From assembly GCA_050953045.1 (NCBI GenBank), contig JBMNLY010000003.1:42340-106339 (forward strand): DNA of 64,000 bases, written 5' to 3'. Below the pieces are notes generated by a model, which did not search any database, was not told the DNA's origin, and saw only the letters and a list, made by a program, of their open reading frames with translations. Source of the DNA: Bacilli bacterium (GTDB lineage: Bacteria; Bacillota_I; Bacilli_A; ML615J-28; CAG-698). A program made the translations under genes and the position numbers. Of the stretch, positions 28,139-44,876 are shown piece after piece. Within the stretch, counting starts at the first letter, position 1. Each line of letters opens with the position of its first letter.

Positions 28139-29887
28139 TTAGCGGGCTTTAAAAACAAATGTTATTTCAACGGTTCTGATTTCCGATAATTTTTCCGGAT
28201 CAATGATGACTGGCGTTGCATAGTTTTGTAAGCGTGGATTAAGAACTCTGGCATCTTCCGGAACTTTTGTAACCCAAACGTTATAAATATTTACTCTGGT
28301 TGTGTTTTGATCATCGCTTGTTGTGTAATAGATTTTGTTTTTAATGTCATAGATTTCATCATTGAATTTCAATTCTTTAATTTCAATAATGTGATCGGGG
28401 TAAAATTTTTCACCGTTATAAATTGCGAGTGCCATAAAGCCGACTGAATTGGCAGAGCCGGCACCGCTTCCGGTGAAATCTAAGGCTACTGTAAACTCAC
28501 CAACTGCTTCAATAGTCACATCTGTTCCAGTAACTCCGTCGGTTCGGCTTCTCGGTTTATATTCGTCGCCGACGCTATAATTAATACCCCAGTCTGAGCT
28601 TGCGAACATAATCCAAGCGATTGCTTTGTTTTTAAAATCTGCATAACCGGAATCGATATCTCTTTGCTGGGCTGCTGCGAGTGCTTCGTCAAGTGAAGCT
28701 TGAGCCGCATTTTTCACTTCTTCTTTGCTTATATCTTTTTGGACCGCATAACTTCTCGAAGCAAACAGTTCCGCAAATTCTTCGTCATACATTTCTAAAT
28801 CTTTTCTGATAAAGAAAGTGCTGGTATCCCATAAAACCGGGACATAACCGTATAAATCACAGTTATCGAGTAAGTTTTTAGTATAATCGATAATATTGCT
28901 TTTTATTTTATCGTCAGGTGTCGGTAAGACACCATATTCACCGATGATTATACCATATCCTGCTTCAATAAATTTCTCTAATGAGGCAAATTTTTCATTT
29001 TGGTAAACAAAATCATCTTCTGTTCCCCAGGTCGAAACACTTTGGAGTGTATAATCAGAGGGGTCATAATAATGAACTGATAAGAGGAGTTTAGCTTCGG
29101 CCGTATCTGTCGGCATTTGGAAACGTTCGTCTAAAGTTCTATTGATATCCGTATTGTATCCGGCAATCAGTAAGAATCTGTCCGAGTTTTTGCTGCCGAG
29201 ATTTCTGATGGTGTCAACAAATAATTGATTAATCCGATTGGTTTCCGAATAGGTTTCATCATCGGTTAAAACCCCGGGCACGCCGTCGATTTCATCGTTA
29301 AGTCTTAAGCCTAATTCTTCGTTCGCAGATTCAAAAATTAACCGATAGGAATAATCTTTAAAATGATTACCGATTTGAGTCCACATTGAGATATATAAGT
29401 CATTCGCAACTTTGCGGAGGTTTTGGTCGCTCGAACCAAACATTCCCCACCAACCGCCCGACCAATGTTCGTTGATAATAACAAACATATCTTCTTCTAA
29501 GGCATAATCGGTTATTTCCGCAACTCTCTTTAAATAAGCGGGATTAATATCATAGTTTCCGTTTTTATAATCGATGGTATTAGTCCAAGCAACGGGGATT
29601 CTCAAAGTATCAAAACCCGCTTCTTTCATTCCTTTGATCATTTCTTTTGTTGTAACAGGTTGTCCCCAAGCCGTCTCATACTGAGAAACATCGCCGGTGA
29701 TTCCGACGGTAGCGCGGCCGTATGCTTCCATCGTGTTTCCTAAATTTATACCGTTACCCATTAATTCGGTAACTTCAAGTGAAGTCATTTCTTTTAAAGT
29801 TTTTTCAATATCATCTTCTTTTTCGATACAACCGACAAAGAAAATCGAAAATAAGAATACTAACAAAAAACTTGTTATTTTTTTCAT
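28139..29887 (-). CDS. Secreted lipoprotein GH5 endo-beta-1,4-glucanase (candidate xyloglucanase) with a C-terminal ~165-aa module shared with the 763-aa surface protein
   Basis: Lipobox FFVGC is present, with GH5 motifs GINLGNTMEA, LRIPVAW, IFESANEE and GEYG. The C-terminal ~165 aa match the repeats of ORF 34741-37032. Confidence 0.8.
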   Translation of the reverse strand: MKKITSFLLVFLFSIFFVGCIEKEDDIEKTLKEMTSLEVTELMGNGINLGNTMEAYGRATVGITGDVSQYETAWGQPVTTKEMIKGMKEAGFDTLRIPVAWTNTIDYKNGNYDINPAYLKRVAEITDYALEEDMFVIINEHWSGGWWGMFGSSDQNLRKVANDLYISMWTQIGNHFKDYSYRLIFESANEELGLRLNDEIDGVPGVLTDDETYSETNRINQLFVDTIRNLGSKNSDRFLLIAGYNTDINRTLDERFQMPTDTAEAKLLLSVHYYDPSDYTLQSVSTWGTEDDFVYQNEKFASLEKFIEAGYGIIIGEYGVLPTPDDKIKSNIIDYTKNLLDNCDLYGYVPVLWDTSTFFIRKDLEMYDEEFAELFASRSYAVQKDISKEEVKNAAQASLDEALAAAQQRDIDSGYADFKNKAIAWIMFASSDWGINYSVGDEYKPRSRTDGVTGTDVTIEAVGEFTVALDFTGSGAGSANSVGFMALAIYNGEKFYPDHIIEIKELKFNDEIYDIKNKIYYTTSDDQNTTRVNIYNVWVTKVPEDARVLNPRLQNYATPVIIDPEKLSEIRTVEITFVFKAR

Positions 29888-29949: not shown

Positions 29950-30570
29950 CTATCCTGACAAGTTCTCCTTTTCAATTTCATTAAAGATTCTTCTGGAAAA
30001 ACCGCTGATGGTATAGAAGATCGTTGCCGGCCCGATTAAAAGGCCGACAAAGTATAAGGTTTCAGTGAAAAGGAACAAAACATTTATGAAGGCAACCAAA
30101 ATCCAGAGGAGGATTGTCCGCAAGAAATACTTATAAGTAATTTCTCTCGAAAGCTTAAAGCTCCGCATAATCGAGTTATCATATCTGGCAAGCAAAGGAT
30201 AGACATAAGTAAAATTAGCCAAGCCGATAAATAGAATCACGATTCCTGCGATTAAAAAGATGATCGGGTTGCCTTCCAGTTTATTAAAAAATTCAAAATT
30301 CAGATAGCAGGAATAAGCCACTGCAAGCGTTATTAACCCTATAATTAGACCTTGTTTAAAGTTTTGTTTAAAAGATTTAAAAAATTGACTGAAGATTTTG
30401 CCTTCTTCATTCGCGGCCATTTTTAAAGTTACGCTGAAAGCAGCAATAGTTGAAGGGCCGATGGTAACAATCGGCAAACTAAAAATTACCCAAATAAAAT
30501 TAAGCTTCAGAACAGTCCAAAGGGTATCCATAAATTTATATAATCTACTATTGATACCAAAAAACTTCAT
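29950..30570 (-). CDS. DUF624/YesL-family membrane protein
   Basis: 206 aa with multiple TM segments. The N-terminus (YKFMDTLWTVLKLNFIWVIFSLPIVTIGPS) is typical of YesL proteins found in sugar ABC operons. Confidence 0.7.
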   Translation of the reverse strand: MKFFGINSRLYKFMDTLWTVLKLNFIWVIFSLPIVTIGPSTIAAFSVTLKMAANEEGKIFSQFFKSFKQNFKQGLIIGLITLAVAYSCYLNFEFFNKLEGNPIIFLIAGIVILFIGLANFTYVYPLLARYDNSIMRSFKLSREITYKYFLRTILLWILVAFINVLFLFTETLYFVGLLIGPATIFYTISGFSRRIFNEIEKENLSG

Positions 30571-30610: not shown

Positions 30611-32278
30611 TTAGTTTTCCTTAACTGCTTGTTCTAAGGAATATCTAAGTTGCGCTTGTTCTTGAGCCCAAGCCAAACATTCATCATAACCATAATCCCG
30701 AGCATTATTCCGCATCTGACGGACGAGAATATTGTATTCCCCGGCAGTTTTCGCATACATTGCTCGCCAAGAAAGAGTTTTGATTGTTTCAGTTACTTGT
30801 TCCCACTTGACTTTCAGTTCAGAACTTCTGATACCAATCGAATAACTTGATCCCGGTGAAACTCGGTAATTAGTTTTCTCCATATAATCTTGGGGATTGA
30901 TGCTGTCAGTAAATTCGCGCCATTTTGCTTCCGTATCATTCCGTGGATCGATTTGGTTGCTCTTCCAAAAATCCCAATGGAATCTTTCGCCGTTAGAATC
31001 GGGGTTAATCGCATCTAAGGACCAAGTTGTATTGTTGATTTGGAAAGCACCATCTCTAAATGTTCCGTAAAATCCGGTTTCTTCCGGGAAAGTAGTGTCT
31101 TGGTTATCGCGCATAGTTCTTCCTAATTCGGTGAAGTGCGTGTTGCGTTCTTCGTCATAATCCCAAGTAATGCCTTTGGGGCCATATTCTGAGATCATTC
31201 TGCCTTCAGGCGTACATAACCAGTTAATTATTTCCATGCATAATTCCGGATATTGGGTTTTGGCACCGATGGACCAAATCCGATTGCCGCCTAAGACATT
31301 CATCCCATAAACGATCGGCCGGGCAGCTTGCGGAGTTAAGGGGAGCATCATTTTGCCTTGTTCAATATTTTCCGGAGTATTGAAAGCAATTGAGCCGGCA
31401 TAGTTGAATATCGAGAAGAAGGTTCCGCCGTTTTTCACCTTCGAAATCATATTATCAAAGGTATTGCTCATTGAGTCGGGGTCTAATAAGTTCGCCCGAT
31501 ATAATTTATTAAAGAAAGCGAGCATTTCCAGATAAGGACTGTTTTCATCCAAAGCTCCGTAATAATTGCCTGTATCGGGATCATATAAACCGATTCCCAA
31601 TTCATCATAACCATAGTATGCCGTCGCCATCGCTTTTACATACATTACCATATCTCCGTCCCAATCGGGCCATAAGGAAACAGCATAGGTTGGATTGCCG
31701 ATGTCATCGACGGGCTCGATTTCTTTCATCGCGACCAAGAGATTGTAATAATCATCTAAGTTATTTATTTCAGGACGACCAAGCTCATCATATAAATCCC
31801 ATCTGATATCCCAAGTATAGAAAAAGGATTCATGGTCTTCGGATGACATGGCGACATTATGACCGAACCCATAGACGGTGCCGCCTGAGAGGTTCCGATT
31901 TTTTTCCAGTGCCAAAGCCATATTTTCTTTAATATAGGGGCCGAATTCATCCAACAATCCGTCTTCTTCCCAATCGAATAATAATCCGGCCTTGACGGCA
32001 TTCAAATATTGTTCACCGTCTCCGCCCCAAACAACGATGTCACCTAAGTTCCCGGATTCCATTCGGGTATCATAGACACCTTCCGTATCCGGAATAATCG
32101 TCATTTCAACATTAAATTTTTCTTTCATGATTTGTGCAAACCAACCGGTCATTTTTCCGGAATAGTTAGCTAATTGGCTATAAACAGTCAGCTGAATGGT
32201 GTCATCACCATTACATCCGACTAATCCGAAAAACATTGATGCCAATAAAACTAAGATCAGCATTTTTCTGTATTTCAT
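30611..32278 (-). CDS. Extracellular solute-binding lipoprotein, LplA-type large SBP of a carbohydrate ABC importer
   Basis: Start at ATG 32278 after AAAGGAGAG. It has lipobox LVGC and is about 555 aa, as in LplA/YtcQ-type oligosaccharide binders. Confidence 0.8.
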   Translation of the reverse strand: MKYRKMLILVLLASMFFGLVGCNGDDTIQLTVYSQLANYSGKMTGWFAQIMKEKFNVEMTIIPDTEGVYDTRMESGNLGDIVVWGGDGEQYLNAVKAGLLFDWEEDGLLDEFGPYIKENMALALEKNRNLSGGTVYGFGHNVAMSSEDHESFFYTWDIRWDLYDELGRPEINNLDDYYNLLVAMKEIEPVDDIGNPTYAVSLWPDWDGDMVMYVKAMATAYYGYDELGIGLYDPDTGNYYGALDENSPYLEMLAFFNKLYRANLLDPDSMSNTFDNMISKVKNGGTFFSIFNYAGSIAFNTPENIEQGKMMLPLTPQAARPIVYGMNVLGGNRIWSIGAKTQYPELCMEIINWLCTPEGRMISEYGPKGITWDYDEERNTHFTELGRTMRDNQDTTFPEETGFYGTFRDGAFQINNTTWSLDAINPDSNGERFHWDFWKSNQIDPRNDTEAKWREFTDSINPQDYMEKTNYRVSPGSSYSIGIRSSELKVKWEQVTETIKTLSWRAMYAKTAGEYNILVRQMRNNARDYGYDECLAWAQEQAQLRYSLEQAVKEN

Positions 32279-32303
32279 TTTGTTCTCTCCTTTCGGAATT
32301 AAA

Positions 32304-33209
32304 TTATCCTTTAACCGCACCTAGCATTATCCCTTTTTGGAAATATTTCTGCATAAAGGGGTAAACTGCTAAAATGGGTATTATTGTTACCATCGAAATA
32401 GTATATTTTAACACTTTGCTGTTCAAGGCATGTTGAACGGCAGAAGCTGGTGATGACTGAATGATTTGTTCCAAATTGCTTGCGGTGGTTAAATAAACAT
32501 ATAACCGGTGTTGCAAGGTATATAAATTTGGAGCATTTTGCATTAAAATTATCGAATCAATAAAGGAATTCCAATGACCAACCGCTCCGAAGATGGCAAT
32601 TGTTGCTAAGATAGGTTTACTTAAAGGTAAAATGATTGAGGTAAATACCTTAAAGTAACCGGCGCCATCAATAAAGGCACTTTCTTCCAATTCTGAAGGA
32701 ATTGATTCAATATAGGTTTTAACTAAAATGATATTAAACGGAGCAATAATGCTGGGAATAATATAACCTAAGAAATTATTGGTTAACCCGAGCATTGAGA
32801 TATTTAAATACCAGGGAATTAAACCGGCATTAAAGTACATCGTAATGATTAAAAATCTGTACATAAACTTGCGGCTTTTCATTTCTTTCTTAGTAACTAA
32901 GTAACCGATGAAAGCCGAGGCAAGCACCATTAAGGCTGTTCCAAGCACTGATCTTGCAGTTGTTACAACAAATGATTTGGTTAAATCATTGACTGTTCTT
33001 AAGGCAATATAGTTTTTTACATGAATCCCCTGCGGTAAGAAGTTAATAACCCCGCGGGCAACCAATTCATTATCCGAGATTGTATTGATGAATAGATAAT
33101 AAAACGGGAAAATACAGGCCAAAGTAAACAAGATAAATCCGAAATGATTAAAGATATCAAATATGGAACCGAATACAGATATTTCTTTATAAACTTTCTT
33201 TCTTGCCAT
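32304..33209 (-). CDS. Carbohydrate ABC transporter permease (LplC-type)
   Basis: It has six TM segments and the EAA-like loop IESIPSELEESAFIDGAGYFKVF. Confidence 0.85.
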   Translation of the reverse strand: MARKKVYKEISVFGSIFDIFNHFGFILFTLACIFPFYYLFINTISDNELVARGVINFLPQGIHVKNYIALRTVNDLTKSFVVTTARSVLGTALMVLASAFIGYLVTKKEMKSRKFMYRFLIITMYFNAGLIPWYLNISMLGLTNNFLGYIIPSIIAPFNIILVKTYIESIPSELEESAFIDGAGYFKVFTSIILPLSKPILATIAIFGAVGHWNSFIDSIILMQNAPNLYTLQHRLYVYLTTASNLEQIIQSSPASAVQHALNSKVLKYTISMVTIIPILAVYPFMQKYFQKGIMLGAVKG

Positions 33210-33217
33210 GTTTCCCC

Positions 33218-34660
33218 CTAGAAGATACTCTCTTTCCGAACAACTTTGGATAATTTGTTAACAGAAAACAGCAGGGTAATACTGATTAATGATTTCGCCA
33301 TTCCCACAACTGTTGAAAGAGGTATGTTTCCGGAATCTAAACCTAATTTATATACATATAAATCTAGAACAGTAATTTTCAATGTGTTTGTTGCATTTTC
33401 GAAAACCAGATACTGTTCCATTCCGTTGCTTAAGATTGATGCAACCGATAAAGTTAACAAAACAAAATAAGTCGGCAGTAAGGATGGGATCGTAATATAA
33501 AGCATTTTTTGGAAACGATTTGCACCATCAATGTCTGCGGCTTCATACATTACGGGGTCAATGCTGGAGATTGCAGCAACATAAATAATTGCGCTCCAAC
33601 CTAAACCTTTCCAGGTTCCGACAGCCCACATCTTCAACCAAATTAGTTTATCGCTGTTCAAATAATTGATTGCAAGTTCTACCCCAAATGTATTTGAGAT
33701 AAACTTATTGATGAAACCGTCGGTTGAAAAGATTGCTAAGGCTAGAGAATAAACCATAACCCAACTGATAAAATTAGGGATCGTTGTAAATGATTGTACA
33801 AAACGCTTAACCTTATTGCTGGTGATTTCCGCCAAAAAGATTGCAAAGATCATCGGGAGCCAACTGGTAATCAAACCGAGTCCGCTCATTACCAAGGTAT
33901 TTCTTAAGACCCGGATAATATCGTTGCGGGTGGCAGGATTTCTGAATAAGAATGTAAACCATTTAAAACCGACAAAATTATCCATACTTAAGGTTTCGCC
34001 GGGACTGTAATCAAAGAAGGCATAACGCCAACCCCATAATGGTAAATATGAAAACACAAAAATTAATGCTGCAAATGGTAAATACATTAACAACAATTGG
34101 TAGGGCCGTTCCATTTCATAACCTTCTTCTTTTGCTGCTTTGGGGGTTATGATTAATAAGACAATCGATAAGATTAAACAAATAACTCCAAAAGCTAAAA
34201 AGAAATAAATCGAAGAAGGCAAGCTCGGCTCGACTCTAACCGGATGATTGGTTTTACTAATCCCATTATAAGCAATAAAAATTCCGCTTAATCCTAATAT
34301 AGCTACGCCGCTACCTAATAAAGTTAATCTATTAGAAAGATTCTTAAATTTATTATTACCGATTAAGAAGCTAGCACCGACCACGGTTGTTAAGATACCG
34401 AGGACACTTACTAAGCTTGAAATATAGAGGATAACAAAATCGCCTTTGCTGACCCAAGAATTTCGAATCGCTCTGATTGCTTCACTGGTTAACCTGGAAT
34501 AAGAAACTGCCGAAGTGAAAAACGACATTGTTTTATTAATTAAAATTGTGACTCGAGCAGGATTAATCGTCGGAACAAATAATAATACTGTAAGTGTCGC
34601 AGCCACAATAATAATTATTATTTCAAGTGTATTAAGTTTTCTTTGCTTTGCTTTTGTCAT
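33218..34660 (-). CDS. Carbohydrate ABC transporter permease (LplB-type) with a ~190-aa N-terminal membrane extension
   Basis: The canonical permease begins near ERPYQLLLMYLPFAALIFVFSYLPLWGW. The EAA loop is YEAADIDGANRFQKM. The preceding ~190 aa contain about four additional hydrophobic helices. Confidence 0.8.
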   Translation of the reverse strand: MTKAKQRKLNTLEIIIIIVAATLTVLLFVPTINPARVTILINKTMSFFTSAVSYSRLTSEAIRAIRNSWVSKGDFVILYISSLVSVLGILTTVVGASFLIGNNKFKNLSNRLTLLGSGVAILGLSGIFIAYNGISKTNHPVRVEPSLPSSIYFFLAFGVICLILSIVLLIITPKAAKEEGYEMERPYQLLLMYLPFAALIFVFSYLPLWGWRYAFFDYSPGETLSMDNFVGFKWFTFLFRNPATRNDIIRVLRNTLVMSGLGLITSWLPMIFAIFLAEITSNKVKRFVQSFTTIPNFISWVMVYSLALAIFSTDGFINKFISNTFGVELAINYLNSDKLIWLKMWAVGTWKGLGWSAIIYVAAISSIDPVMYEAADIDGANRFQKMLYITIPSLLPTYFVLLTLSVASILSNGMEQYLVFENATNTLKITVLDLYVYKLGLDSGNIPLSTVVGMAKSLISITLLFSVNKLSKVVRKESIF

Positions 34661-34740: not shown

Positions 34741-37032
34741 TTATTTTTTCTTGATAACTATAAAGTAAACAACCGCACCGACACCAACTAGAGCAACTAC
34801 GCCTAAAGAAATCCAGAGCCAGAGCCAATCTTTATCATCAACATCACTCGGATCTTCGCCGTTCGGATCTTCACCGTTCGGATCTTCACCATTCGGGTCT
34901 TCGCCGTTCGGGTCTTCACCGTTCGGATCTTCGCTGTCAATGCCTGTACCTTCTAAAGTAAATTCAACTTTAATTTCACTTTCAGGTTCCAGTAATTCCG
35001 GATTAACAACCGGTTTATCGGCTGTACCTGATCCCCAAATATTATAGAGTTCTAAGCGGAGACGACCATTTCCTTCAATGTCGCCAACAATAATATTGGA
35101 ATTATTAACTTGAACTTCAACACCGTCTACAAATACTTTTACAGTAACTTTCAAATCAGTATCAGTTAAGCCACCAGCAGCTGCTTCTTTTAAAGTTCCA
35201 AGATGGACCATTGCTTCGCCCAAATCAACAATATCAATTAAGAATACTTGAGCGGTTTTGGCTTTTTCTGTCCAACCGAAATCTGCGGCTTTGATATAAA
35301 CTGTATAAGTTCCATCACCGGTAACAAGAGCATCGCCCGCATATTCGCCGTCGGTTGTATATCTTTCCCAACCACCTTCTTCTGACGAATACATCATGAA
35401 CGCGCGGAATGATTCCGGCATTTCATAAGGAGGCACAATTATCGGTGCTCCGACTGTAATTGTAAAGGTAATTTCAATTGTCTCGATATTTTCAAATGCT
35501 GGAGTGTCTTCACTCTTATAGAGAGGTTTTGCTGAAGCTTGAGCAAGAGTTTGATGTGCTGCTACGCGGCCTTCACTAATTTCTTCAACCCAAATGTTGT
35601 AAAAATTCAGTCTTGTTTGTTTACCTTCAGCATTAACATAGTGTACGCCTAAATCAACTTCCACACCGTTGATCTTGAAGGAATCAATACGAATATAGCT
35701 ATAGGGGAAGTAATCTTCACCTTTACCAATTTCTAAACCTAAGAAGCCAACATTCGGTAAAACGCCGCCTTCAACGCCTGTGAAGTCAATTGCGGCTGTA
35801 TATTGACCATAGCCTTTAATGACAGGATTAGTAACAACAATTCCTGCAGTATTAGCGTCATCGCCTTCGCCCCAATATTGAACTTCAAAATCCTCATCAG
35901 CTGCAACAAAGTAACCTTTAGTGCCTTCTTCCGGTAATTCAACAGATTCTTCAGGAATCGGATTGATCGGTGCACCATGTTCGAGACTGAATGTTACTTC
36001 AATTGTTTCGATTTGTTCTGTTTCATCATATTGGCCAACCGGAATCGCCGTGATTTCTTCTGTTAAGAGTCCTTCGAAAGTACGACCTTCGTTAATTTCA
36101 GCAACCCACTCATTATAGAGGTTAACTCTGGAATCATTTTTATTATCAGAGGTTGTATAGTGTTCGCCTAATTCAACTTCTTCACCATTAATCAAGACTT
36201 CTTTTACAACCATTAAGTTTGTCGGGAATTTATGTTCGCCGTTTAAAATTTCCACATCTAGGAAAGCAATTCCGGCTCCAAACCCATTTTCGGTTCCTGT
36301 GAAGTCTAAGGAAACAGTGTAATCAGTGAAATATTGACTTACGTCTACTGTTTCAACAACAACACCTTCAAATTCACTGCCGTTATACCAATATTGAACT
36401 CCCCAATCTTTAGAAGCATATTGGAGATAAGCTTTCGAAACCAAAGATGCCGGATCTTTTAAATCAAATTTAATACCCGCACCAATTGTAAATGTGATTT
36501 CAATTGTTTCAATATCAGTCATTTCAGCAACATTTACCGGATTAGGTGTAACTGCTGCAGTACCAGTAAGTGATCTACCACTTTCAGCAACCTTAGCCCA
36601 AGGATTTGTTAAGTTAACTCTGGTATCATTGTTTTCAGCAGTAGTATAAGTTGCACCCACATTATTTAATGTTTCGCCATTAACTTTGATTTCGTTAATA
36701 ATGATGTGGTCTTCGGAAAACTCTTGTTCGCCGTTTTTAATATCCACAGCCCAGAAGAAAATGTCAGATAAGACACCTGCTTCAGTGCCGGTAAAATCTA
36801 AGCCGACAGTATACTGTCCGCGACCTGTAACTTCAGCGGTTGTTGAAACAACACCTTCGGTATTGTTATCTGCGCCATAGAAATATTGGACGCTCCAATC
36901 TTCATTGCTAATACCGATAAAAGCAACCATGTCTTCGTCTGCTGCTTTTACATTAGCACTGAAAACACAAATACTAAATACCGCAACTAAAACAAACATT
37001 ACGGTGTTTAATAGTTTTTTGTAAAGTCTCAT
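34741..37032 (-). CDS. Cell-surface protein with four ~165-170-aa repeats of an unassigned (candidate carbohydrate-binding) module, a (DPNGE)n linker and a C-terminal TM anchor
   Basis: It has a signal peptide (VFSANVKA). Recurring blocks are YTV.LDFTG..G, NGE..F., (I/V)NGEEV, YTT..N..RVNLYN.WV and IETIE(I/V)TF. The tail is DPNGE x5 followed by WLWLWISLGVVALVGVGAVVYFIVIKKK. Confidence 0.75.
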   Translation of the reverse strand: MRLYKKLLNTVMFVLVAVFSICVFSANVKAADEDMVAFIGISNEDWSVQYFYGADNNTEGVVSTTAEVTGRGQYTVGLDFTGTEAGVLSDIFFWAVDIKNGEQEFSEDHIIINEIKVNGETLNNVGATYTTAENNDTRVNLTNPWAKVAESGRSLTGTAAVTPNPVNVAEMTDIETIEITFTIGAGIKFDLKDPASLVSKAYLQYASKDWGVQYWYNGSEFEGVVVETVDVSQYFTDYTVSLDFTGTENGFGAGIAFLDVEILNGEHKFPTNLMVVKEVLINGEEVELGEHYTTSDNKNDSRVNLYNEWVAEINEGRTFEGLLTEEITAIPVGQYDETEQIETIEVTFSLEHGAPINPIPEESVELPEEGTKGYFVAADEDFEVQYWGEGDDANTAGIVVTNPVIKGYGQYTAAIDFTGVEGGVLPNVGFLGLEIGKGEDYFPYSYIRIDSFKINGVEVDLGVHYVNAEGKQTRLNFYNIWVEEISEGRVAAHQTLAQASAKPLYKSEDTPAFENIETIEITFTITVGAPIIVPPYEMPESFRAFMMYSSEEGGWERYTTDGEYAGDALVTGDGTYTVYIKAADFGWTEKAKTAQVFLIDIVDLGEAMVHLGTLKEAAAGGLTDTDLKVTVKVFVDGVEVQVNNSNIIVGDIEGNGRLRLELYNIWGSGTADKPVVNPELLEPESEIKVEFTLEGTGIDSEDPNGEDPNGEDPNGEDPNGEDPNGEDPSDVDDKDWLWLWISLGVVALVGVGAVVYFIVIKKK
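34848..34934 (-). repeat. 15-bp tandem coding repeat (about 5.5 units) encoding (DPNGE)n
   Basis: Units of tcggatcttc(g/a)ccgt repeat head to tail. Confidence 0.9.
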
Positions 37033-37107
37033 AACTCCTCCTATTTATTTATGTTTATATCTTTTTAGTAAACGTTTTCTTGATATTTTTTAAAAAATAA
37101 TAATCAT

Positions 37108-37157
37108 TGTGCTCGTGCACAAGCTTCTATATTATCACTAAAACAGAGGGCTGTCAA
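37108..37157 (-). promoter_or_regulatory. Promoter-operator module P1 of the polysaccharide-utilisation operon
   Basis: The minus strand reads TTGACA-17 nt-TAATAT-7 nt-TGTGCACGAGCACA. The last element is a 14-bp LacI-type palindrome with a central CG. Confidence 0.75.
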
Positions 37158-37275: not shown

Positions 37276-38280
37276 CTATTTTTCAACCGGAAACTTCATA
37301 TTTTTAAGATGAACGCGATTTCCGGTCATATTTTGGACATCTAAGGGTTTGCTATTATAAACCAAATAATCTCTGACAATCTGAAGCGAACGGCTTCCCT
37401 GTTTATAAGGTTGTTGAGTGATTGTTGCAAGGATCTTTCCTTCCGCCAAAGCTTTTCGGACAGCTTTAGTTTCGTCAACCGTAATAACTTTAATCTTTGA
37501 ACCAGTTTCCGCAATTGCTTTCAGTCCGCCGGAGATTCCCGCTGCCGCATAATAAATTAAGTCATAACCATTGCTGAGGATGATATCTTTGGTTAATAGA
37601 TAAGATTGTTCATCATCGTCTTGGTTTTCAAAAGTTTGGACTTGTTTACCTTTACTTTTAAAAGCATCTTTAAAGCCTTCGATTCGCTCAACATGACCTC
37701 TGATTTTATAGGAACCAACAATGATTGCGACATTTCCGCCACTAGGGAGAGCAATATTGGCAATATCGCCGCTTAATTGCCCGCTGTTGTAATAATCACA
37801 ACCAACAAAAGCTAACTTTTCGATATCAATGTCATTATTCATTAAAACAATCGGAATTTTAATCTGACTTAGTTTCTCGATAACCTTCTTTGTATTAAAA
37901 GGGTTGATAATTAAAGCTTGGATATTTTCCTTCATTATACTGTCGATTGCTTCGATTTGTTTTTCTTCATCATAACCTTTAAAATTCTTAATGATTAAAT
38001 TGATATTGCTGCTTTTATTGGCCTCATACATTAAGCCTTCCAAAACATAGTCAAAAAATTCATTGCCGATATTATTAATAACGACTCCGACCCGAAAAGT
38101 TTTCTTGGAATTCACTAAACCCTGGGCGTGGCGATTGGATTTATAATTATACTTTTTAATGATATACTCAATCTTTTTCCTGTTTTCTTCGCTCACACCC
38201 CCACGGTTGTGAATAACACGATCGACTGTCCCTCTTGATACATTGGATAATTCAGCAATTTTCTTGATTGTTATTGACAT
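37276..38280 (-). CDS. LacI-family transcriptional regulator (candidate repressor of the TGTGCACGAGCACA operators)
   Basis: N-terminal HTH ITIKKIAELSNVSRGTVDRVIHNRGGVS, followed by a periplasmic-binding-protein-like sugar-binding core. Confidence 0.85.
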   Translation of the reverse strand: MSITIKKIAELSNVSRGTVDRVIHNRGGVSEENRKKIEYIIKKYNYKSNRHAQGLVNSKKTFRVGVVINNIGNEFFDYVLEGLMYEANKSSNINLIIKNFKGYDEEKQIEAIDSIMKENIQALIINPFNTKKVIEKLSQIKIPIVLMNNDIDIEKLAFVGCDYYNSGQLSGDIANIALPSGGNVAIIVGSYKIRGHVERIEGFKDAFKSKGKQVQTFENQDDDEQSYLLTKDIILSNGYDLIYYAAAGISGGLKAIAETGSKIKVITVDETKAVRKALAEGKILATITQQPYKQGSRSLQIVRDYLVYNSKPLDVQNMTGNRVHLKNMKFPVEK

Positions 38281-38301: not shown

Positions 38302-39768
38302 CTATTTGAATTTCTCAAAGAAAGGTTTTACGCTTTCTGCTAACAGTAAATAAGTTTGATATTTTTTTTGGTAAATCTGAACATTATCCAACTTTGGGAC
38401 AAATTCCTTTTCAACCTTGATGATGTTTGCACAGGCAGTAAAGACATCAGGAAATAGGCCGTCCCCGACCATGGCCATGATTGCGGCACCCAAAGACGAA
38501 CCTTCGGTCACCACTGGTTTTTGGACCGGGATATTAAAGACATCGGCAACCATTTGACACCAATGGTCGTTTTTAGCGCCTCCGCCTGTGATTCTGATTT
38601 GTTTTGAATTAACATTTAAACTTTTAATCACATCATAACAATGACGCAGTGAAAAGACAATGCCTTCAATTACCGCGCGACTGAAGTTTTCAGGTTTATG
38701 ATTTGCTGTAAAACCGCTGAATGTTCCTTTCGCAAACGGATTATTTAGAGGCGATCTTTCCCCGGAAATATAAGGCAAATAATAAAGCGTATCATCGCTA
38801 TTCGTTTTGACTAAATCATTAAAGATTTCATCATAAGATTTATGAGGAAAAAACGATTCTTTCCACCACTTGAACGAACCTGCGGCCGCAAGGGTGACCC
38901 CCATTAAATGATACTTATGATTTGCATGTGCAAAGGAGTGTAGGAATGATTTTTTGTCAACCGAATAATTATCAGAAGCAACAAAGACAACACCGCTTGT
39001 GCCTAAGGAAATATTAATATCGCCGTCGTTAACGGTTCCGGTTCCAATCGCACCGATTGCTTGGTCGCCGCCACCAACGATCACTTTTACGCTTTGGGGA
39101 AGATTTAGTTCTTTTGCTGCTTCATGAACTAACTCTCCCACGACTTCACTGCTTTCCAAAACCAGAGGAAATTGCTTTATATCAAGTCCTAAAAAAGCTA
39201 ACATTGCTTTACTATAGGTTTTGGCTTTAACATTAAACAACAAAGAGCCGGAAATATCGGATACATCGGTTACAAATTTTTTTGTAAATTTGTAAACCAA
39301 GTAATCCTTCGGTAACATTATTTTTTTGATCTTTTGAAAATTTTCGGGTTCATTATTTTTAACCCATAAGATTTTCGGGGCCGTAAAACCCGTTAAGGCA
39401 ACATTTCCCGTCTCAGCTAGCAACTTCTCGACGGTAAAATGCTGATTTAGATAATCAGTTTCTACAATTGTTCTTTGATCGTTCCATAAAATCGCCGGTC
39501 TGATCACTTGATCATTTTCATCTAAGATTACCAAACCGTGCATTTGACCGGAAAAGGAAAGAGCTTTAATCTTTTCTTCATTGCTTTGAATACATTTTTT
39601 AAGGGCTCTTAATGTACTTTGATACCAATCATCAGGGTTTTGTTCGGTCCATAACGGCCTCGGCGTTAACAACTCATAATTTTCGGTAACGGAGTTAATC
39701 ATCTTTCCGTTTTTGTCAACCAAAATTACCTTAACGCCTGTTGTTCCTAAATCAATACCTATATACAT
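38302..39768 (-). CDS. xylB: Xylulokinase (FGGY family)
   Basis: MYIGIDLGTTGVKV and the GGGAKN motif are present. The gene lies directly downstream of xylA. Confidence 0.85.
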   Translation of the reverse strand: MYIGIDLGTTGVKVILVDKNGKMINSVTENYELLTPRPLWTEQNPDDWYQSTLRALKKCIQSNEEKIKALSFSGQMHGLVILDENDQVIRPAILWNDQRTIVETDYLNQHFTVEKLLAETGNVALTGFTAPKILWVKNNEPENFQKIKKIMLPKDYLVYKFTKKFVTDVSDISGSLLFNVKAKTYSKAMLAFLGLDIKQFPLVLESSEVVGELVHEAAKELNLPQSVKVIVGGGDQAIGAIGTGTVNDGDINISLGTSGVVFVASDNYSVDKKSFLHSFAHANHKYHLMGVTLAAAGSFKWWKESFFPHKSYDEIFNDLVKTNSDDTLYYLPYISGERSPLNNPFAKGTFSGFTANHKPENFSRAVIEGIVFSLRHCYDVIKSLNVNSKQIRITGGGAKNDHWCQMVADVFNIPVQKPVVTEGSSLGAAIMAMVGDGLFPDVFTACANIIKVEKEFVPKLDNVQIYQKKYQTYLLLAESVKPFFEKFK

Positions 39769-39793
39769 AATTAGCTCGCTTTCTTTTTATTCT

Positions 39794-41110
39794 TTATGAG
39801 AACATTATTTGATTGATGATGCTTTCCAAATACTCCTGACGGCCGCTTTCTACTTCTAAATCCTCAATCGAAAGTGCATACTCATAAAGTTCTTCTAAAG
39901 TCACTTCTTTTTCAGAGATTCTTTTACCGATGCCATGATTATAAGAATCGTATCTCTCTTTCACAAACTCATCCAATCTGCCGTCTTCAATCAAGGCTAC
40001 CGCTTTTCTTAAACCGAGGGCATATGTATCCATCCCCATGATATAAGCAAGGACTAAATCCTCAACGGTGTTCGATGCTCTCCTTGTTCTCGCATCAAAG
40101 TTAATACCTCCGTTTTTAAAGCCGCCGGCTTTTAAGATTTCATACATTGCGAGTGTCGAGCCATAAACATCTTTGGGGAAATGATCCGTATCCCAACCGA
40201 GGAGGACATCGCCTTCGTTGGCATCGATTGAACCTAGCATATTATCAATCGCGGCGGTCCTTAGTTCATGTTCGAAAGTATGACCGGCAAGTGTAGCATG
40301 GTTCGCTTCGATATTGATTTTAAAATCAGCTAAGAGATTATGTTTTCTTAAGAAGCCGATTGCGGTTGCGGTATCAAAATCATATTGATGTTTGGTCGGT
40401 TCCATTGGTTTCGGCTCAATCAGAAAATCGCCTTTAAAGCCATTTTCCCTGCCATAATCTCGAGCCAGTTTTAAGAAAGTTGCAAGATTGTCTAATTCCT
40501 TTTCCATATCGGTATTAAGAAGTGTTTCATAGCCTTCTCTTCCACCCCAAAAGACATAGCCGGATCCTCCCAGTTTTATGGTTGCATCAATGGTCTTTTT
40601 CACTTTTGCTGCGGCGATGGTATAAACATCGGCATTTGGTGAGGTTGCGGCACCGACCATAAATTTCTTTGCGGAAAAATTATTTGCTGTAGCCCAAAGA
40701 AGCTTTTTATTGTATTTCTTCTGTAAGGAAGCTAAGTAGTCAACCATTTGGTCAAAGAAAGCAAAGGTTTCCTTTAAGTCTTTTCCTTCGGGAGCAATAT
40801 CGACATCATGGAAGCAATAATAATCAATCCCTAAGATATCCATTAATTTAAAACAAAATTCTGCTTTTGCTTTATACTTTTCTAAGGGATCATTTTGACC
40901 AAAACTTTTGTCCATGGTTGCATCGCCAAACATATCAATCCCTTCCGCAACCAAGGTATGCCAATAACTGAGGGCAAATTTTAAATGGTCTTTCATTTTT
41001 TTACCAAAGATTACTTCTTCGGGATTATAATATTTAAAGCTAAATTTCTCTTTGTTTTTAGATCCTTTATACTCAATTTTCCCTATTCTTTTTAGGTCAT
41101 CAAATTTCAT
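39794..41110 (-). CDS. xylA: Xylose isomerase
   Basis: 438 aa with [31 protein letters not shown] and [14 protein letters not shown]. Confidence 0.95.
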
Positions 41111-41647: not shown

Positions 41648-41676
41648 GAAAAAACCGTGGTTTTACACGGTTTTCT
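41648..41676 (-). terminator. Rho-independent terminator after the GLUG-repeat gene
   Basis: Minus strand: AAAACCGTGtaaaacCACGGTTTTTT. Confidence 0.7.
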
Positions 41677-44600
41677 TAGCTAGGGATTTTGATACAATTT
41701 TGTTCAAGGTTAATTAGTTTCGGAAAAAAACCGGCTTCGACTAAAGAATAGTCCCAGACATTAGTTGAAAAGCCGATTCCGAGATACCAATCCTCGCTTT
41801 TTAATTCAGTATATGTTACTGGTATTCCAAAACTGTTTTCATCTCCTTGAATTATTTGGTTTTCATAATAAAAAATATTAAAGGTTTTCCCAGAGTTCAG
41901 ATGACCAATAAAACGGCCGACCTTTACCTCTCCGGTTACATTTCCGGAAGCAAAAGAATTTTTAACTTCTTCGCCTGTTTGGAGACCAAGAAAGCCCCCA
42001 ACATTTGTTACTCCTACTACATTTGCTAAGGAGAAAGAACATTCAATTATACCGGCATTAACACCGACTAAACCACCGACATTTTCATTTCCTTGAATTG
42101 TACCACTCGAATAACTATTTTCAATATGGCTGAGAAAATCCTTAAAATGCAAATTGACTCCAACCAAGCCCCCGACATTTGTTGCGCCTGCAACATTTCC
42201 GGAAAAATAACAATATTTCAAATAACCGTTTTCGTTTCTTCCAACTATGCCCCCGGTATCACTTCCGCCAACTATATCAGCATTTGCATAGGAATAAAAA
42301 ATATTTACCTTCCCATACTCATTAACAACATGACCGATTAGACCACCGATCCCAGTTCCGCTTCCTTCTACTCTTCCGAGGAAATAAGAATAACTAACGG
42401 ATAATGAACATTTGCCGACCAAGCCCCCGACAAAATCCTTTCCATAAACTTCCGCAAGAGCAGAGGAGTTTCTTATTTTTCCGCCGGTACCAACCAAACC
42501 GCCAACCCTAGAATCACCGGTAATCGTTCCCGAAGCAAATGAAGAATCTATCGTCCCAAAATTAGCACCGGTCAATCCTCCAACCGTTTCTTTCCCGCTT
42601 ACTTGAACATTTGCTTCTGATGAATATATTAGGCCGTCCGAATTTATTCCGATTAAACCACCGATTTTATAAGTGCCGCTAACTTTAACTTCTCCAAAAC
42701 AATTGTTGACGCTGCCGTAGTTGATTCCAACTAAACTGCCGACATTGCTGTAACCAAAAAATTCGCCGTAAACAGAAACATTTTCAATTGTTCCCGAATT
42801 GTATACTGATAAGCCTCCAATATAATTCAAACCTTTTAAATAAAAATCTTCTAGCACCAGGTTTTTAACAATTCCCTTGCTACCGATACGAAAGAATAAG
42901 CCAAAACGCTCAACTCCTTCGTCTTCAAGATATAAGCCGGAAATTTTATTGCCGTTTCCGTTGAAGATTCCGCCAAAGCTTTGGTCTTCTCCGAGCGGCT
43001 GCCAATCAGATTCTGATAAATCAAGGTCACTGACTAATTCATAACAACCATTTAAATGGTTCCGGATGGCATCTAAGCCGTTAAGATCAGAAATCTTTTT
43101 GTAAACCTCGGCCTGAAATTTGGGCTTTTGGATAACAACCGGAAGCTTACTCTTAAAGAAAATGTCCTCTATTTTATATTCCACAATTCCGGATTCAACT
43201 GGGTTATGTTCGATTTTAATAATTATCCTCTCAGTGGTTGATTCTTCCTCAAATAGAGAATATTCTTCTCCGTTGATAATTACCGAATCAACTGCTAGTC
43301 CGCCCGTATTACCAAGCTCAACGCAGATAATAAAATAATTAAAAGATTCATCCAAATAAAGATGATTTTGGGCGCTTGCTTCAACTGAGATTAATCTAAT
43401 ATCTTCTTGCGTTAATGTGCTATCCTTAATCTTTACTTTAGGTAAGCAATTATTTTCCAAAGGGCTTAAATCCCAATATCTGCTTAACTTAAACCTCTTA
43501 AAAATGATCAGATCTTGGTAGTTCCAGTTTGTTCCATTAAAGCCAAGTTCTTCTTTCGGCGCTTCTAAACGTCCAAAAAAGTAAGTCCCGTGATAAAGCG
43601 CGCCTATAAAATTGCCGACAATCCCACCGACAGCAGTTAAGCCGCTTACTTTACCGAAGGAAAAAATATATTCGAGATTTGTATAAATTATATCATCGGG
43701 AGGAAGATAGAAAGAAGCAATTGAAGAACCGACAATTCCGCCGACATTATTTTTTCCTGTTACATTAACCGTGGAGGAAAGATCAAAAACAATCCCGCCT
43801 TCTACCTTGCCCGCGACTCCTCCGACATTGTTTTCGCCCCAAACATTACCGGTTATGTAAAGACGATTAAGAGCAGGATTTTCTTTAATATATCCCGCAA
43901 CCGCACCGACATAGTCTTTACCAATAATTGAGACATCCCCTAAAACCAAATCATAGACTTCACCGCTCAAATATCCAAACAAACCTAGATAGTCTCTACT
44001 GGGTTGATTGATTTTAATATTCCTAATTGTATAACCGTTTCCGTTTAAACTGCCACTGAAAGGAGTGTTTTCATCTCCCAAGGGTTCCCAATTACCGTCT
44101 GCTTCAAATTCATTTGCATCATATAGAGTAAAGTCCAAATCATTCATCAGAATATAATGCGCGCTTAATTCATTCCTGATCTGATCAAATTCTTCACAAG
44201 TGAATATTTTATAAGGATTTTCCTTTGTGCCGTCACCAGGATCAAACACATCAATGGTAATGCTACTATTTATTCTTAAATATCTGATTTCCTGTTTTAC
44301 TTTATACTGTAATTCCGTTAACTCAAAGTTTAAGAGTCCGCCTTCAGCCATTGAAAGATCAATCAGGATTTTATTTGGACTGGACTCTTCCTTAAACTCA
44401 CTGTATTTAAAAGAATTAATTTTTACACTCACAATCTCATAAGCTTGAGGATTATCTAAAATGATTCTAAATGTAACAAGATCATATCTATTTGCATTTT
44501 GAACATCGCACTCAAAGCTTAAAAATTTCATTATAATTTCTTCTTTGGGTTCACTCACGACTATTTTTAATGTCTTGGTTAGGAAATGATTATTTCCGAG

Positions 44601-44876
44601 GTCAAATTTAAAAATCACTTCATAAGTTCCGGCAATTTTCAGATTGACATCAGAATCATCAACCAATATTCCAAACTTTTCAATTTCTTGACCTCCCCTT
44701 TTAAAAATCACCGCATCCAGCCAATTGGGCTTAGCATCGCCCACTTCATAATTTGTTTGAAAACTACTATCTATAGAGAGTTCATATTCTTCTTTTTCTT
44801 CTTCGTTTGGCTTTGAAGGAAAACAGCCAGCAAAGACAAACAATAAAACCACAAATAAAAACCCGATTTTTTTCAC
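41676..44876 (-). CDS. Large surface lipoprotein with many GLUG-motif repeats
   Basis: It has lipobox VFAGC and more than 20 copies of N/K-VGG(L/I)(V/A)G spaced about 20 aa apart. This pattern is the GLUG motif of IgA-protease-like and adhesin proteins. Two similar halves are each preceded by Ig-like segments. Confidence 0.7.
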   Translation of the reverse strand: MKKIGFLFVVLLFVFAGCFPSKPNEEEKEEYELSIDSSFQTNYEVGDAKPNWLDAVIFKRGGQEIEKFGILVDDSDVNLKIAGTYEVIFKFDLGNNHFLTKTLKIVVSEPKEEIIMKFLSFECDVQNANRYDLVTFRIILDNPQAYEIVSVKINSFKYSEFKEESSPNKILIDLSMAEGGLLNFELTELQYKVKQEIRYLRINSSITIDVFDPGDGTKENPYKIFTCEEFDQIRNELSAHYILMNDLDFTLYDANEFEADGNWEPLGDENTPFSGSLNGNGYTIRNIKINQPSRDYLGLFGYLSGEVYDLVLGDVSIIGKDYVGAVAGYIKENPALNRLYITGNVWGENNVGGVAGKVEGGIVFDLSSTVNVTGKNNVGGIVGSSIASFYLPPDDIIYTNLEYIFSFGKVSGLTAVGGIVGNFIGALYHGTYFFGRLEAPKEELGFNGTNWNYQDLIIFKRFKLSRYWDLSPLENNCLPKVKIKDSTLTQEDIRLISVEASAQNHLYLDESFNYFIICVELGNTGGLAVDSVIINGEEYSLFEEESTTERIIIKIEHNPVESGIVEYKIEDIFFKSKLPVVIQKPKFQAEVYKKISDLNGLDAIRNHLNGCYELVSDLDLSESDWQPLGEDQSFGGIFNGNGNKISGLYLEDEGVERFGLFFRIGSKGIVKNLVLEDFYLKGLNYIGGLSVYNSGTIENVSVYGEFFGYSNVGSLVGINYGSVNNCFGEVKVSGTYKIGGLIGINSDGLIYSSEANVQVSGKETVGGLTGANFGTIDSSFASGTITGDSRVGGLVGTGGKIRNSSALAEVYGKDFVGGLVGKCSLSVSYSYFLGRVEGSGTGIGGLIGHVVNEYGKVNIFYSYANADIVGGSDTGGIVGRNENGYLKYCYFSGNVAGATNVGGLVGVNLHFKDFLSHIENSYSSGTIQGNENVGGLVGVNAGIIECSFSLANVVGVTNVGGFLGLQTGEEVKNSFASGNVTGEVKVGRFIGHLNSGKTFNIFYYENQIIQGDENSFGIPVTYTELKSEDWYLGIGFSTNVWDYSLVEAGFFPKLINLEQNCIKIPS

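Follow-up and report, generated by a model that had tools for sequence, protein, structure and literature searches.

The 64,000-nucleotide stretch of DNA analysed here (hereafter the window) originates from a Bacilli bacterium (contig JBMNLY010000003.1, positions 42,340 to 106,339) and contains a polysaccharide operon on its reverse strand. The first gene of this operon encodes a surface protein with four copies of an all-beta module that most likely represents an undescribed family, and a fifth copy is found at the C-terminus of a glycoside hydrolase (GH) family 5 lipoprotein encoded further downstream. A first-pass annotation, prepared from the sequence alone, had described a 763-amino-acid secreted protein at the head of the operon, consisting of four consecutive modules with a series of conserved motif blocks and a transmembrane (TM) anchor, and these points were borne out. 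The open reading frame (ORF) encodes exactly 763 amino acids (aa) including a signal peptide, a family hidden Markov model (HMM) built from 62 module instances matches the protein four times at full length (about 160 aa each), and a C-terminal TM helix with a KKK tail was located in the sequence. The features of the gene are as follows.

34741..37032, reverse strand: four-module surface protein gene, 763 aa, first gene of the operon (ORF with four HMM matches; Pfam and NCBIfam blank)
36943..37032, reverse strand: signal peptide, aa 1-30, ending ...SANVKA before ADED (from the sequence; a similar hydrophobic, signal-peptide-like N-terminus is present in 146 of 199 family proteins)
36469..36939, reverse strand: module M1, aa 32-188, canonical type (HMM independent E-value 6.9e-53)
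35968..36444, reverse strand: module M2, aa 197-355, canonical type, the copy used for modelling (2.6e-58)
35443..35931, reverse strand: module M3, aa 368-530, canonical type (2e-52)
34942..35418, reverse strand: module M4, aa 539-697, conserved divergent "C-terminal" subtype (1.1e-18)
34848..34932, reverse strand: low-complexity linker (EDPNG)n, n = 5-6, a 15-bp tandem repeat in 5.7 copies (Tandem Repeats Finder and translation)
34753..34827, reverse strand: C-terminal TM helix, aa 736-760, followed by KKK (from the sequence; a TM-plus-lysine tail also occurs in 47 family proteins)

Modules M1 to M3 share 40-42% identity in pairwise BLASTP comparisons (E 1e-30 to 1e-34), and M4 shares 25-31% identity with them (best E 2e-5). 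All the motif blocks quoted earlier were found in the alignment, where they read DWGVQYWY, YTVSLDFTG, NGE..FP, INGEEV, YTTSD..RVNLYNEWV and IETIEVTF. The four-module repeat architecture is far beyond chance.

The presence of the same module at the end of the GH5 lipoprotein, also proposed in the first-pass annotation, was corroborated by BLASTP.

28139..29887, reverse strand: GH5 lipoprotein, 582 aa, with a catalytic domain at aa ~30-400 nearest to GH5_4 endo-xyloglucanases (Pfam PF00150, E 1.8e-41; PDB sequence matches)
28142..28633, reverse strand: fifth module copy, the C-terminal 164 aa (aa 419-582) of the GH5 lipoprotein, a member of the GH5-appended clade (BLASTP; clade comparison)

This copy shares 32-37% identity with M1-M3 (E 1e-20 to 1e-26), and the lipoprotein that carries it has its own lipobox membrane anchor. 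The best PDB sequence matches of the enzyme are 3zmr (9e-50) and 2jep, a "xyloglucanase" (2e-45); 6xsu ("GH5-4") and 4w85 ("xyloglucan-specific") were also matched. 3zmr is the endo-xyloglucanase of the Bacteroides ovatus xyloglucan utilization locus. The enzyme can thus be classed as GH5_4-type by similarity to characterised endo-xyloglucanases and endoglucanases, which is not a formal CAZy assignment. The combination is not confined to the window: GH5 with a C-terminal module occurs in 19 further representatives of clusters formed at 50% identity, with GH5 domains 30-56% identical to that of the window, and Pfam detects GH5 in 12 of the 13 enzyme-length single-module proteins scanned. When the modules are compared, a GH5-appended copy is closest to another GH5-appended copy or to a fragment, and such copies make up a separate clade. 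Therefore, the GH5 copy is not a recent duplicate of the modules in the surface protein.

Relation of the module to known families and structures

The module had been reported as unassigned, and searches of sequence and structure collections agreed. A Pfam search with the whole window proteins returned nothing on the module at E<=1, NCBIfam returned nothing on it in either the surface protein or the GH5 lipoprotein, and none of 62 diverse module instances attained any Pfam gathering cut-off. Profile searches of the PDB sequences gave best E-values of 0.08-1.2, which are noise only. An AlphaFold2 model of M2, obtained with an alignment of 62 sequences, has a predicted local distance difference test (pLDDT) value of 96.6 and a predicted template modelling score of 0.91; it is all-beta, with about eight strands and one short helix. 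Foldseek compared this model with the PDB and found 0 chains at E<=1e-3. The best E-value was 0.07, with template modelling scores of at most 0.38, and the top entries were generic beta-sandwiches. There was no match among the viral predicted structures of BFVD. The M4 subtype was modelled with a pLDDT of 96.1 and a strand order like that of the canonical type, and Foldseek found no PDB neighbour for it either.

Carbohydrate-binding module (CBM) families with a Pfam model or a structure (CBM4, 6, 11, 17/28, 22, 29, 30, 35, 44, 46, 65, 77, 78 and 80) show no sequence or structure similarity to the module in these searches. A confident profile match to a defined CBM or Ig-like family would have contradicted the view that the module is unassigned; it was looked for in Pfam and NCBIfam and none was obtained. 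For the Ig-like, Fn3 and Big profiles, there is no Pfam match on the module and no significant Foldseek match to Ig. CAZy defines a CBM both as a discrete contiguous domain within a carbohydrate-active enzyme and by an experimental demonstration of carbohydrate binding for at least one member; the C-terminal module of the GH5 lipoprotein is a domain of the first kind, the isolated module being modelled at the pLDDT of 96.6 given above. A description of the module family was not found in a full-text search of the literature, and the public names of its members are "hypothetical protein", "endoglucanase" and "glycoside hydrolase family 5 protein". The module family is thus most likely undescribed and all-beta, and the descriptions of CBM75 and CBM76 argue indirectly against its identity with those families.

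Some weak resemblances were considered and rejected. The Shr-like HID/DUF1533 domain (PF07550) was seen below threshold in 11 of the 62 instances, with a best E of 0.0056 and a gathering threshold of 22.3 bits. The alignments displayed cover only part of the 82-position profile, the "IKINGEEV..YT" hairpin, and the similarity is at the level of a motif. The starch-binding domain of AmyP (5x5s), found at E 1.8 with a 5-sequence profile, was gone with the 62-sequence profile and was not in the Foldseek top 50. PF26182 (Ig_NUP210_5th), reported together with Big_2 on two family proteins (P0194 and P0197), corresponds to a separate C-terminal Ig tail outside the module.

Subtypes and distribution of the module family

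The fourth copy had been described as divergent, which its 25-31% identity to the others confirms, but it is better understood as a conserved subtype. In anchored multi-module proteins the last module has a median HMM score of 19, compared with 150-170 at the other positions. M4 of the window shares 44-57% identity with modules that come last in other proteins, and M4-type domains are the C-terminal-most module of their own protein in 45 of 56 cases. The profiles of the M4 subtype and of the canonical type align in hhalign with 99.5% probability (E 2.4e-22). These comparisons indicate that M4 is a conserved paralogous subtype with motifs of its own and not a decaying copy. An Izemoplasmatales orthologue of the surface protein (L093, 1346-3589) has the same 3+1 order of modules, an N-terminal lipobox, a (TTAP/TTVAP)n linker and no C-terminal TM helix. 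In this protein the variant module is membrane-distal; therefore, the conserved property of the subtype is being C-terminal, not being membrane-proximal.

The types can be told apart by their conserved residues (M2 numbering). Positions common to all types are A6, G41, Y43, G88, R107, Y111, N112 and W/Y114. Residues W15, Y19, W20, F62, E71, F74, P75, Y97 and T98 are present in the canonical and GH5-appended types and mostly lost in the M4 type, in which N109 is also changed to E and R122 is deleted. The GH5-appended copies have specific changes of Y7 to W and W20 to S. Conservation in the canonical and GH5-appended types reaches 60-100% at W15, Y19, W20, E71, Y97, T98, D101, R107, N109, N112, W114 and R122. 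In the secondary structure of the model, the conserved polar and aromatic residues fall in loops and on one side of strand 106-112, along which the hydrophobic V108 and L110 are interleaved with R107, N109 and Y111. This arrangement suggests that the conserved residues mark a candidate ligand site that is absent from the M4 subtype. Since most of the polar and aromatic residues are selectively lost in M4, they would be expected to form a ligand site rather than the core of the fold.

The family is large. An HMM search of 1.84 billion representative proteins retrieved 522 clusters at E<=1e-3, of which 112 were at E<=1e-30, and 501 stretches were confirmed in a scan of metagenomes, with bioreactor/digester, fermentation and human-gut samples among the sources. 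Besides the GH5 fusions, the architectures include two to five tandem modules followed by a low-complexity linker and a C-terminal TM helix with a lysine-rich tail (47 proteins), short single-module proteins ending in the sortase-type motifs PKTG, PDTG or PETG (9 proteins), and occasional fusions to BspA-type leucine-rich repeat (LRR), Big_2 or InlB-B-repeat surface domains. One protein of 3806 aa (P0113) has at least 15 partial module matches in a local HMM scan and 31 matched stretches in an exhaustive search; it may be a large adhesin with a shortened version of the domain.

The named taxa that carry the module are Acholeplasmataceae, Izemoplasmatales, Vallitaleaceae, Hungateiclostridiaceae, Ruminiclostridium, Anaerosporobacter, Lachnospiraceae, Clostridiaceae, Limnochordia and Treponema. 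The cluster formed at 90% identity or more around the surface protein of the window includes HHX80109.1 from Acholeplasmataceae, and the host appears to be a wall-less Acholeplasmataceae bacterium, that is, a Mollicute. The lack of a wall would explain why the proteins of the window are attached by a TM helix and a lipobox and not by wall anchors. Elsewhere, walled Firmicutes relatives have the same TM tail or sortase-type motifs, and the Izemoplasmatales relative has an N-terminal lipid anchor.

Linkage of module genes to a long-permease importer

The order of genes in the operon is module gene, long permease, second permease, 569-aa binding protein, DUF624/MusI-family protein and GH5 with the module, followed by GH2, GH31, GH43, GH3 and GH29. 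The components of the importer are listed below.

33218..34660, reverse strand: long CUT1 permease, 480 aa, regularly encoded just downstream of module genes (BPD_transp_1 at aa 271-468; NCBIfam MalF/UgpA-like from aa ~193)
34076..34660, reverse strand: 4-TM N-terminal domain of the long permease, aa 1-195, without Pfam annotation (alignment of 20 de-replicated lineages)
32304-33209, reverse strand: second permease (BPD_transp_1)
30611-32320, reverse strand: importer binding protein, 569 aa (weak, sub-cut-off SBP_bac_1/SBP_bac_8; no NCBIfam match)
29950-30570, reverse strand: DUF624 protein with a below-cut-off match to the NCBIfam MusI family (Pfam, NCBIfam; in the cassette of many lineages)

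With two BPD_transp_1 permeases (MalF/MalG/UgpAE-like) and a solute-binding protein (SBP), the transporter has the composition of a CUT1 (MalFGK2-type) ATP-binding cassette (ABC) importer. No ATPase gene is present within the window operon; the ATPase of CUT1 importers is often encoded elsewhere. MusI is an accessory membrane protein of ABC importers. The binding protein, whose orthologues measure 560-690 aa, appears from its weak profile matches to belong to a divergent SBP subfamily. The long permease reaches about 480-520 aa in different lineages, with about 190 residues preceding the MalF/UgpA-like core. Across the 20 de-replicated lineages this N-terminal region contains four hydrophobic segments and the motifs FFPxxNPxRI...SLFT..SYS...GWV and SLGNxRMK.

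The genomic context of module genes was surveyed in 92 loci and the window by calling ORFs and searching them for matches to the module HMM and for homologues of reference proteins. The 105 module ORFs found fell into 31 clusters at 70% identity, and linkage was counted in those surface-protein clusters without GH5 for which 1.5 kb or more of sequence was available downstream, 16 in all. In 12 of these 16 lineages the long permease comes directly after the module gene and is itself followed by the second permease (permC), an SBP (560-690 aa) and, in many cases, DUF624. Lineage L010, the 13th, reaches the long permease via a second module gene, and the exceptions are L003, L009 (beside GH5) and L007 (a rhamnose/GH106 locus). 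In L031, L040, L046 and L065 the gene for GH5 with the module itself fills the slot before the long permease. Genes for GH31, GH95, GH29, GH2, GH3 and GH5 are found close by repeatedly, in roughly half of the lineages. As in the window, module-bearing anchored proteins are therefore encoded beside an ABC importer in 12 of 16 lineages, or 13 counting L010. Co-occurrence with GH5 and an importer, which the first-pass annotation had proposed to survey, was found as well, but the picture must be refined, as the tightest link is to this specific long-permease importer and not to GH5 or xyloglucan genes. The rhamnose/GH106 locus (L007/L008, 8226-10753) encodes a sortase-anchored single-module protein after a 557-aa gene product that has no Pfam match and resembles binding proteins.

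The most sampled lineage comprises 43 loci, mostly from human-gut metagenomes (among L043-L092; e.g., L088, 9863-16587), and consists of a four-gene cassette alone: a 694-aa protein with four modules, the long permease, permC and a 611-aa SBP. The flanking genes, for pyruvate:ferredoxin oxidoreductase and a metal ABC transporter, represent a housekeeping setting. As this cassette occurs without a detected glycoside hydrolase of the reference families, the smallest unit to be conserved consists of the module protein and the importer. A reverse look-up that started from the permease extension covered two lineages only. In one, a metagenome-assembled genome of Izemoplasmatales, the upstream gene encodes a four-module protein that has a Pro/Thr linker and is anchored by an N-terminal lipobox. 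The second lineage has a GH94 gene upstream of the long permease, and its contig ends inside the permease.

The control region of the window operon lies within the 243-bp gap between the module gene and the gene of a LacI-family regulator, and xylulokinase and xylose isomerase genes are located upstream of the operon (38302-41110).

37276-38280: LacI-family regulator, adjoining the module gene upstream (Pfam)
37246-37218 and 37157-37129, reverse strand: two strong sigma-70-like promoter-like sites, both with an extended -10 TG (consensus scan)
37107-37122: palindrome TTGTGC-N4-GCACAA, between the proximal -10 and the ATG (sequence scan)

The palindrome is a candidate operator for the adjacent regulator. 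The window is rich in further genes for plant polysaccharides, among them those of a pectate lyase with CBM77 (7824-10178) and of a Chondroitinase-B-like protein that contains Listeria-Bacteroides repeats (13087-15066). A gene on the reverse strand at 41676-44876, immediately upstream of the sugar genes, encodes a protein of 1066 aa in which GLUG motifs and a region resembling the N-terminal part of M26 IgA1 peptidases were recognised.

Proposed function and its alternatives

We consider it somewhat probable that the modules constitute a new CBM family and that the 763-aa protein is a multivalent, membrane-tethered capture protein for a xyloglucan-type polymer, serving the GH5_4 enzyme and the importer. 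The first-pass annotation had suggested a CBM or a glycan-capture protein. The distribution of the module is that expected of a CBM or of a surface glycan-binding protein (SGBP), and we infer carbohydrate binding, the nature of the ligand and the hand-off to the importer. The confident modelling of the module as an independent domain, the signal peptides and anchors that point to display outside the cell, and the location of the operon beside a LacI-family regulator, with xylose catabolic genes upstream, were also counted in favour of this proposal. The glycoside hydrolase set of the window is that required for the breakdown of fucogalacto-xyloglucan.

According to this proposal, three canonical modules and one variant module would be displayed outside the cell on a flexible acidic linker, tethered by a single TM helix, an attachment that suits a wall-less Acholeplasmataceae host. 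As a multivalent SGBP, the protein would capture, at the membrane, a plant polymer of the beta-glucan type, for which xyloglucan is the most probable candidate. The GH5_4-type lipoprotein endoglucanase, targeted to the same polymer by its own module, would cut it into oligosaccharides, which the large binding protein and the CUT1 ABC permeases would import. Breakdown would be completed by cytoplasmic GH31, GH2, GH29, GH3 and GH43 together with xylose isomerase and xylulokinase.

Several observations weigh against this proposal. The module has no recognisable similarity to any Pfam CBM or to any CBM of known structure, and the clustering of its conserved residues into a surface site is only suggested by the predicted secondary structure. 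Module genes are linked more closely to the importer than to glycoside hydrolases of any family. In the human-gut lineage none of the GH families used as references, the only ones that the survey looked for, was detected within 10 kb, and in the rhamnose/GH106 locus the permeases are of ordinary length. Therefore, the ligand may differ between lineages, or the partner of the module may be a protein.

A tentative elaboration, which we regard as possible but rather unlikely, would make the module protein a dedicated extracytoplasmic subunit belonging to a separate class of Gram-positive and Mollicute ABC importers in which capture, cleavage and uptake are physically coupled. The parts of such an importer would be a module-bearing protein or enzyme, a MalF-like permease with a 4-TM extension, an unusually large SBP and a MusI-like protein, and the TM helix or the variant C-terminal module would possibly contact the extra domain of the permease. 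It would be the ABC-transporter counterpart of the SusCD-SGBP complexes of Bacteroidetes, based on a beta fold without a detected structural relative.

It is unlikely that the module serves protein-protein assembly, by docking the surface protein and GH5 to the SBP or to the 4-TM domain of the permease or by binding to itself, with no role in glycan binding. An assembly module would account for the proximity of module genes to the long permease (12-13 of 16 lineages), for the GH5 fusions that take the slot before the permease in L031, L040, L046 and L065, and for the human-gut cassette without a detected GH. The permease N-terminal domain is conserved and otherwise unexplained, and the conserved variant C-terminal module could have a distinct partner. 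However, single-module sortase-anchored proteins and LRR or Ig fusions occur without enzymes, and docking would be needless for the GH5 of the window, which already has a lipobox anchor. The multivalency of near-equivalent copies is typical of glycan binding, and one long permease has GH94, not a module gene, upstream.

We find it doubtful that the module is a CBM family already catalogued in CAZy without a Pfam model or a structure, such as CBM75 or CBM76 of Ruminococcus flavefaciens; this would change its novelty and not its function. CBM76 modules are about 160 aa long, and neither CBM75 nor CBM76 is known to have a Pfam model or a structure. Reviews list CBM75, CBM76, CBM78 and CBM80 as binders of beta-glucan or xyloglucan, but CBM76 is reported to occur on GH44-dockerin enzymes and to be exclusive to ruminococci, CBM75 is reported on GH43, and the family proteins scanned have no Pfam match to GH44, GH43 or dockerin. 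The uninformative public names of the members and the empty literature search also argue against this identity.

Least probable of all, and in our opinion very unlikely, is an inert structural spacer or surface coat, in which beta-sandwich stalk units form a layer or keep components at a distance from the membrane: tandem beta-rich modules on a tether do resemble Ig-like stalks, only generic beta-sandwiches head the Foldseek lists and fusions to Big_2 and LRR surface domains exist, but the multi-module proteins have nothing else to project, strongly conserved polar and aromatic residues (predicted to be exposed) and specific fusion to one GH5 lineage would be unexpected, and there is no Pfam match to Ig, Fn3 or Big.

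The capture of a xyloglucan-type polymer, which we favour, has precedents in known systems. Type B CBMs with affinity for xyloglucan or beta-glucan, found on GH5, GH9 and GH44 enzymes (CBM65, CBM46, CBM44, CBM78, CBM80 and CBM76) are likewise non-catalytic all-beta modules of about 100-170 aa with conserved Trp/Tyr and polar residues, located at the C-terminus of GH5_4-type endoglucanases or xyloglucanases and sometimes in tandem. The module described here differs in having no similarity to any Pfam CBM or PDB chain, and for CBM75 and CBM76 the comparison extends to their descriptions. The SusE/F-like SGBP-B of Bacteroidetes, as in the xyloglucan locus of Bacteroides ovatus, is also non-catalytic and membrane-tethered, has tandem beta domains, is proposed to capture the polymer, and is encoded beside the transporter and the GH5_4 endo-xyloglucanase of its locus. 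However, SGBP-B is an outer-membrane lipoprotein that accompanies a SusC/D TonB-dependent transporter and its domains are unrelated, whereas module proteins are anchored in the cytoplasmic membrane (by a TM helix, a sortase motif or a lipobox), have an ABC importer as partner and belong to Firmicutes and Mollicutes. Since the neighbours are CUT1 ABC components and not SusC/D, the module protein may work like an SGBP without being a member of that group.

Surface proteins made only of binding modules of a type common to the cognate enzyme, and encoded with an ABC importer, are also known among Gram-positive bacteria, as in the starch adherence proteins of Ruminococcus bromii and the Gram-positive polysaccharide utilization loci (gpPULs) of Roseburia and Eubacterium. 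Those proteins carry established families (CBM26, CBM74 and others) and are anchored to the wall, and the importer described here is distinctive in its permease N-terminal domain and its MusI-like subunit. Two papers describe loci of Ruminiclostridium cellulolyticum and Anaerocellum bescii in which extracellular cleavage is followed by CUT1 import of xyloglucan oligosaccharides and their degradation by cytoplasmic GH31, GH2/42 and GH3 (PMC4780118, PMC12710961), the same Gram-positive strategy of cleaving, importing and degrading. The extracellular enzymes in these sources are cellulosomal or have multiple CBM3, and a keyword search of their text finds no module-bearing surface protein or long permease.

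If the module binds glycans, it would found a CBM family without a detected structural relative that comprises hundreds of clusters from digester, rumen/termite-type and human-gut metagenomes, and it would allow the annotation of hundreds of "hypothetical proteins" as well as the tails of many GH5_4 enzymes. The discovery of a new CBM family is in itself not rare. The proposal would also provide Gram-positive and wall-less bacteria with a defined surface glycan-binding component, a role that was worked out mainly for the Sus-like systems of Bacteroidetes, and polysaccharide importers of this widespread class could be recognised by a genetic marker, the module gene together with the long permease. 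Whether capture and transport are physically coupled can be approached through two concrete parts, the N-terminal domain of the permease and the variant C-terminal module. The Acholeplasmataceae bacterium itself would carry a complete system for the utilisation of plant hemicellulose adapted to a wall-less cell.

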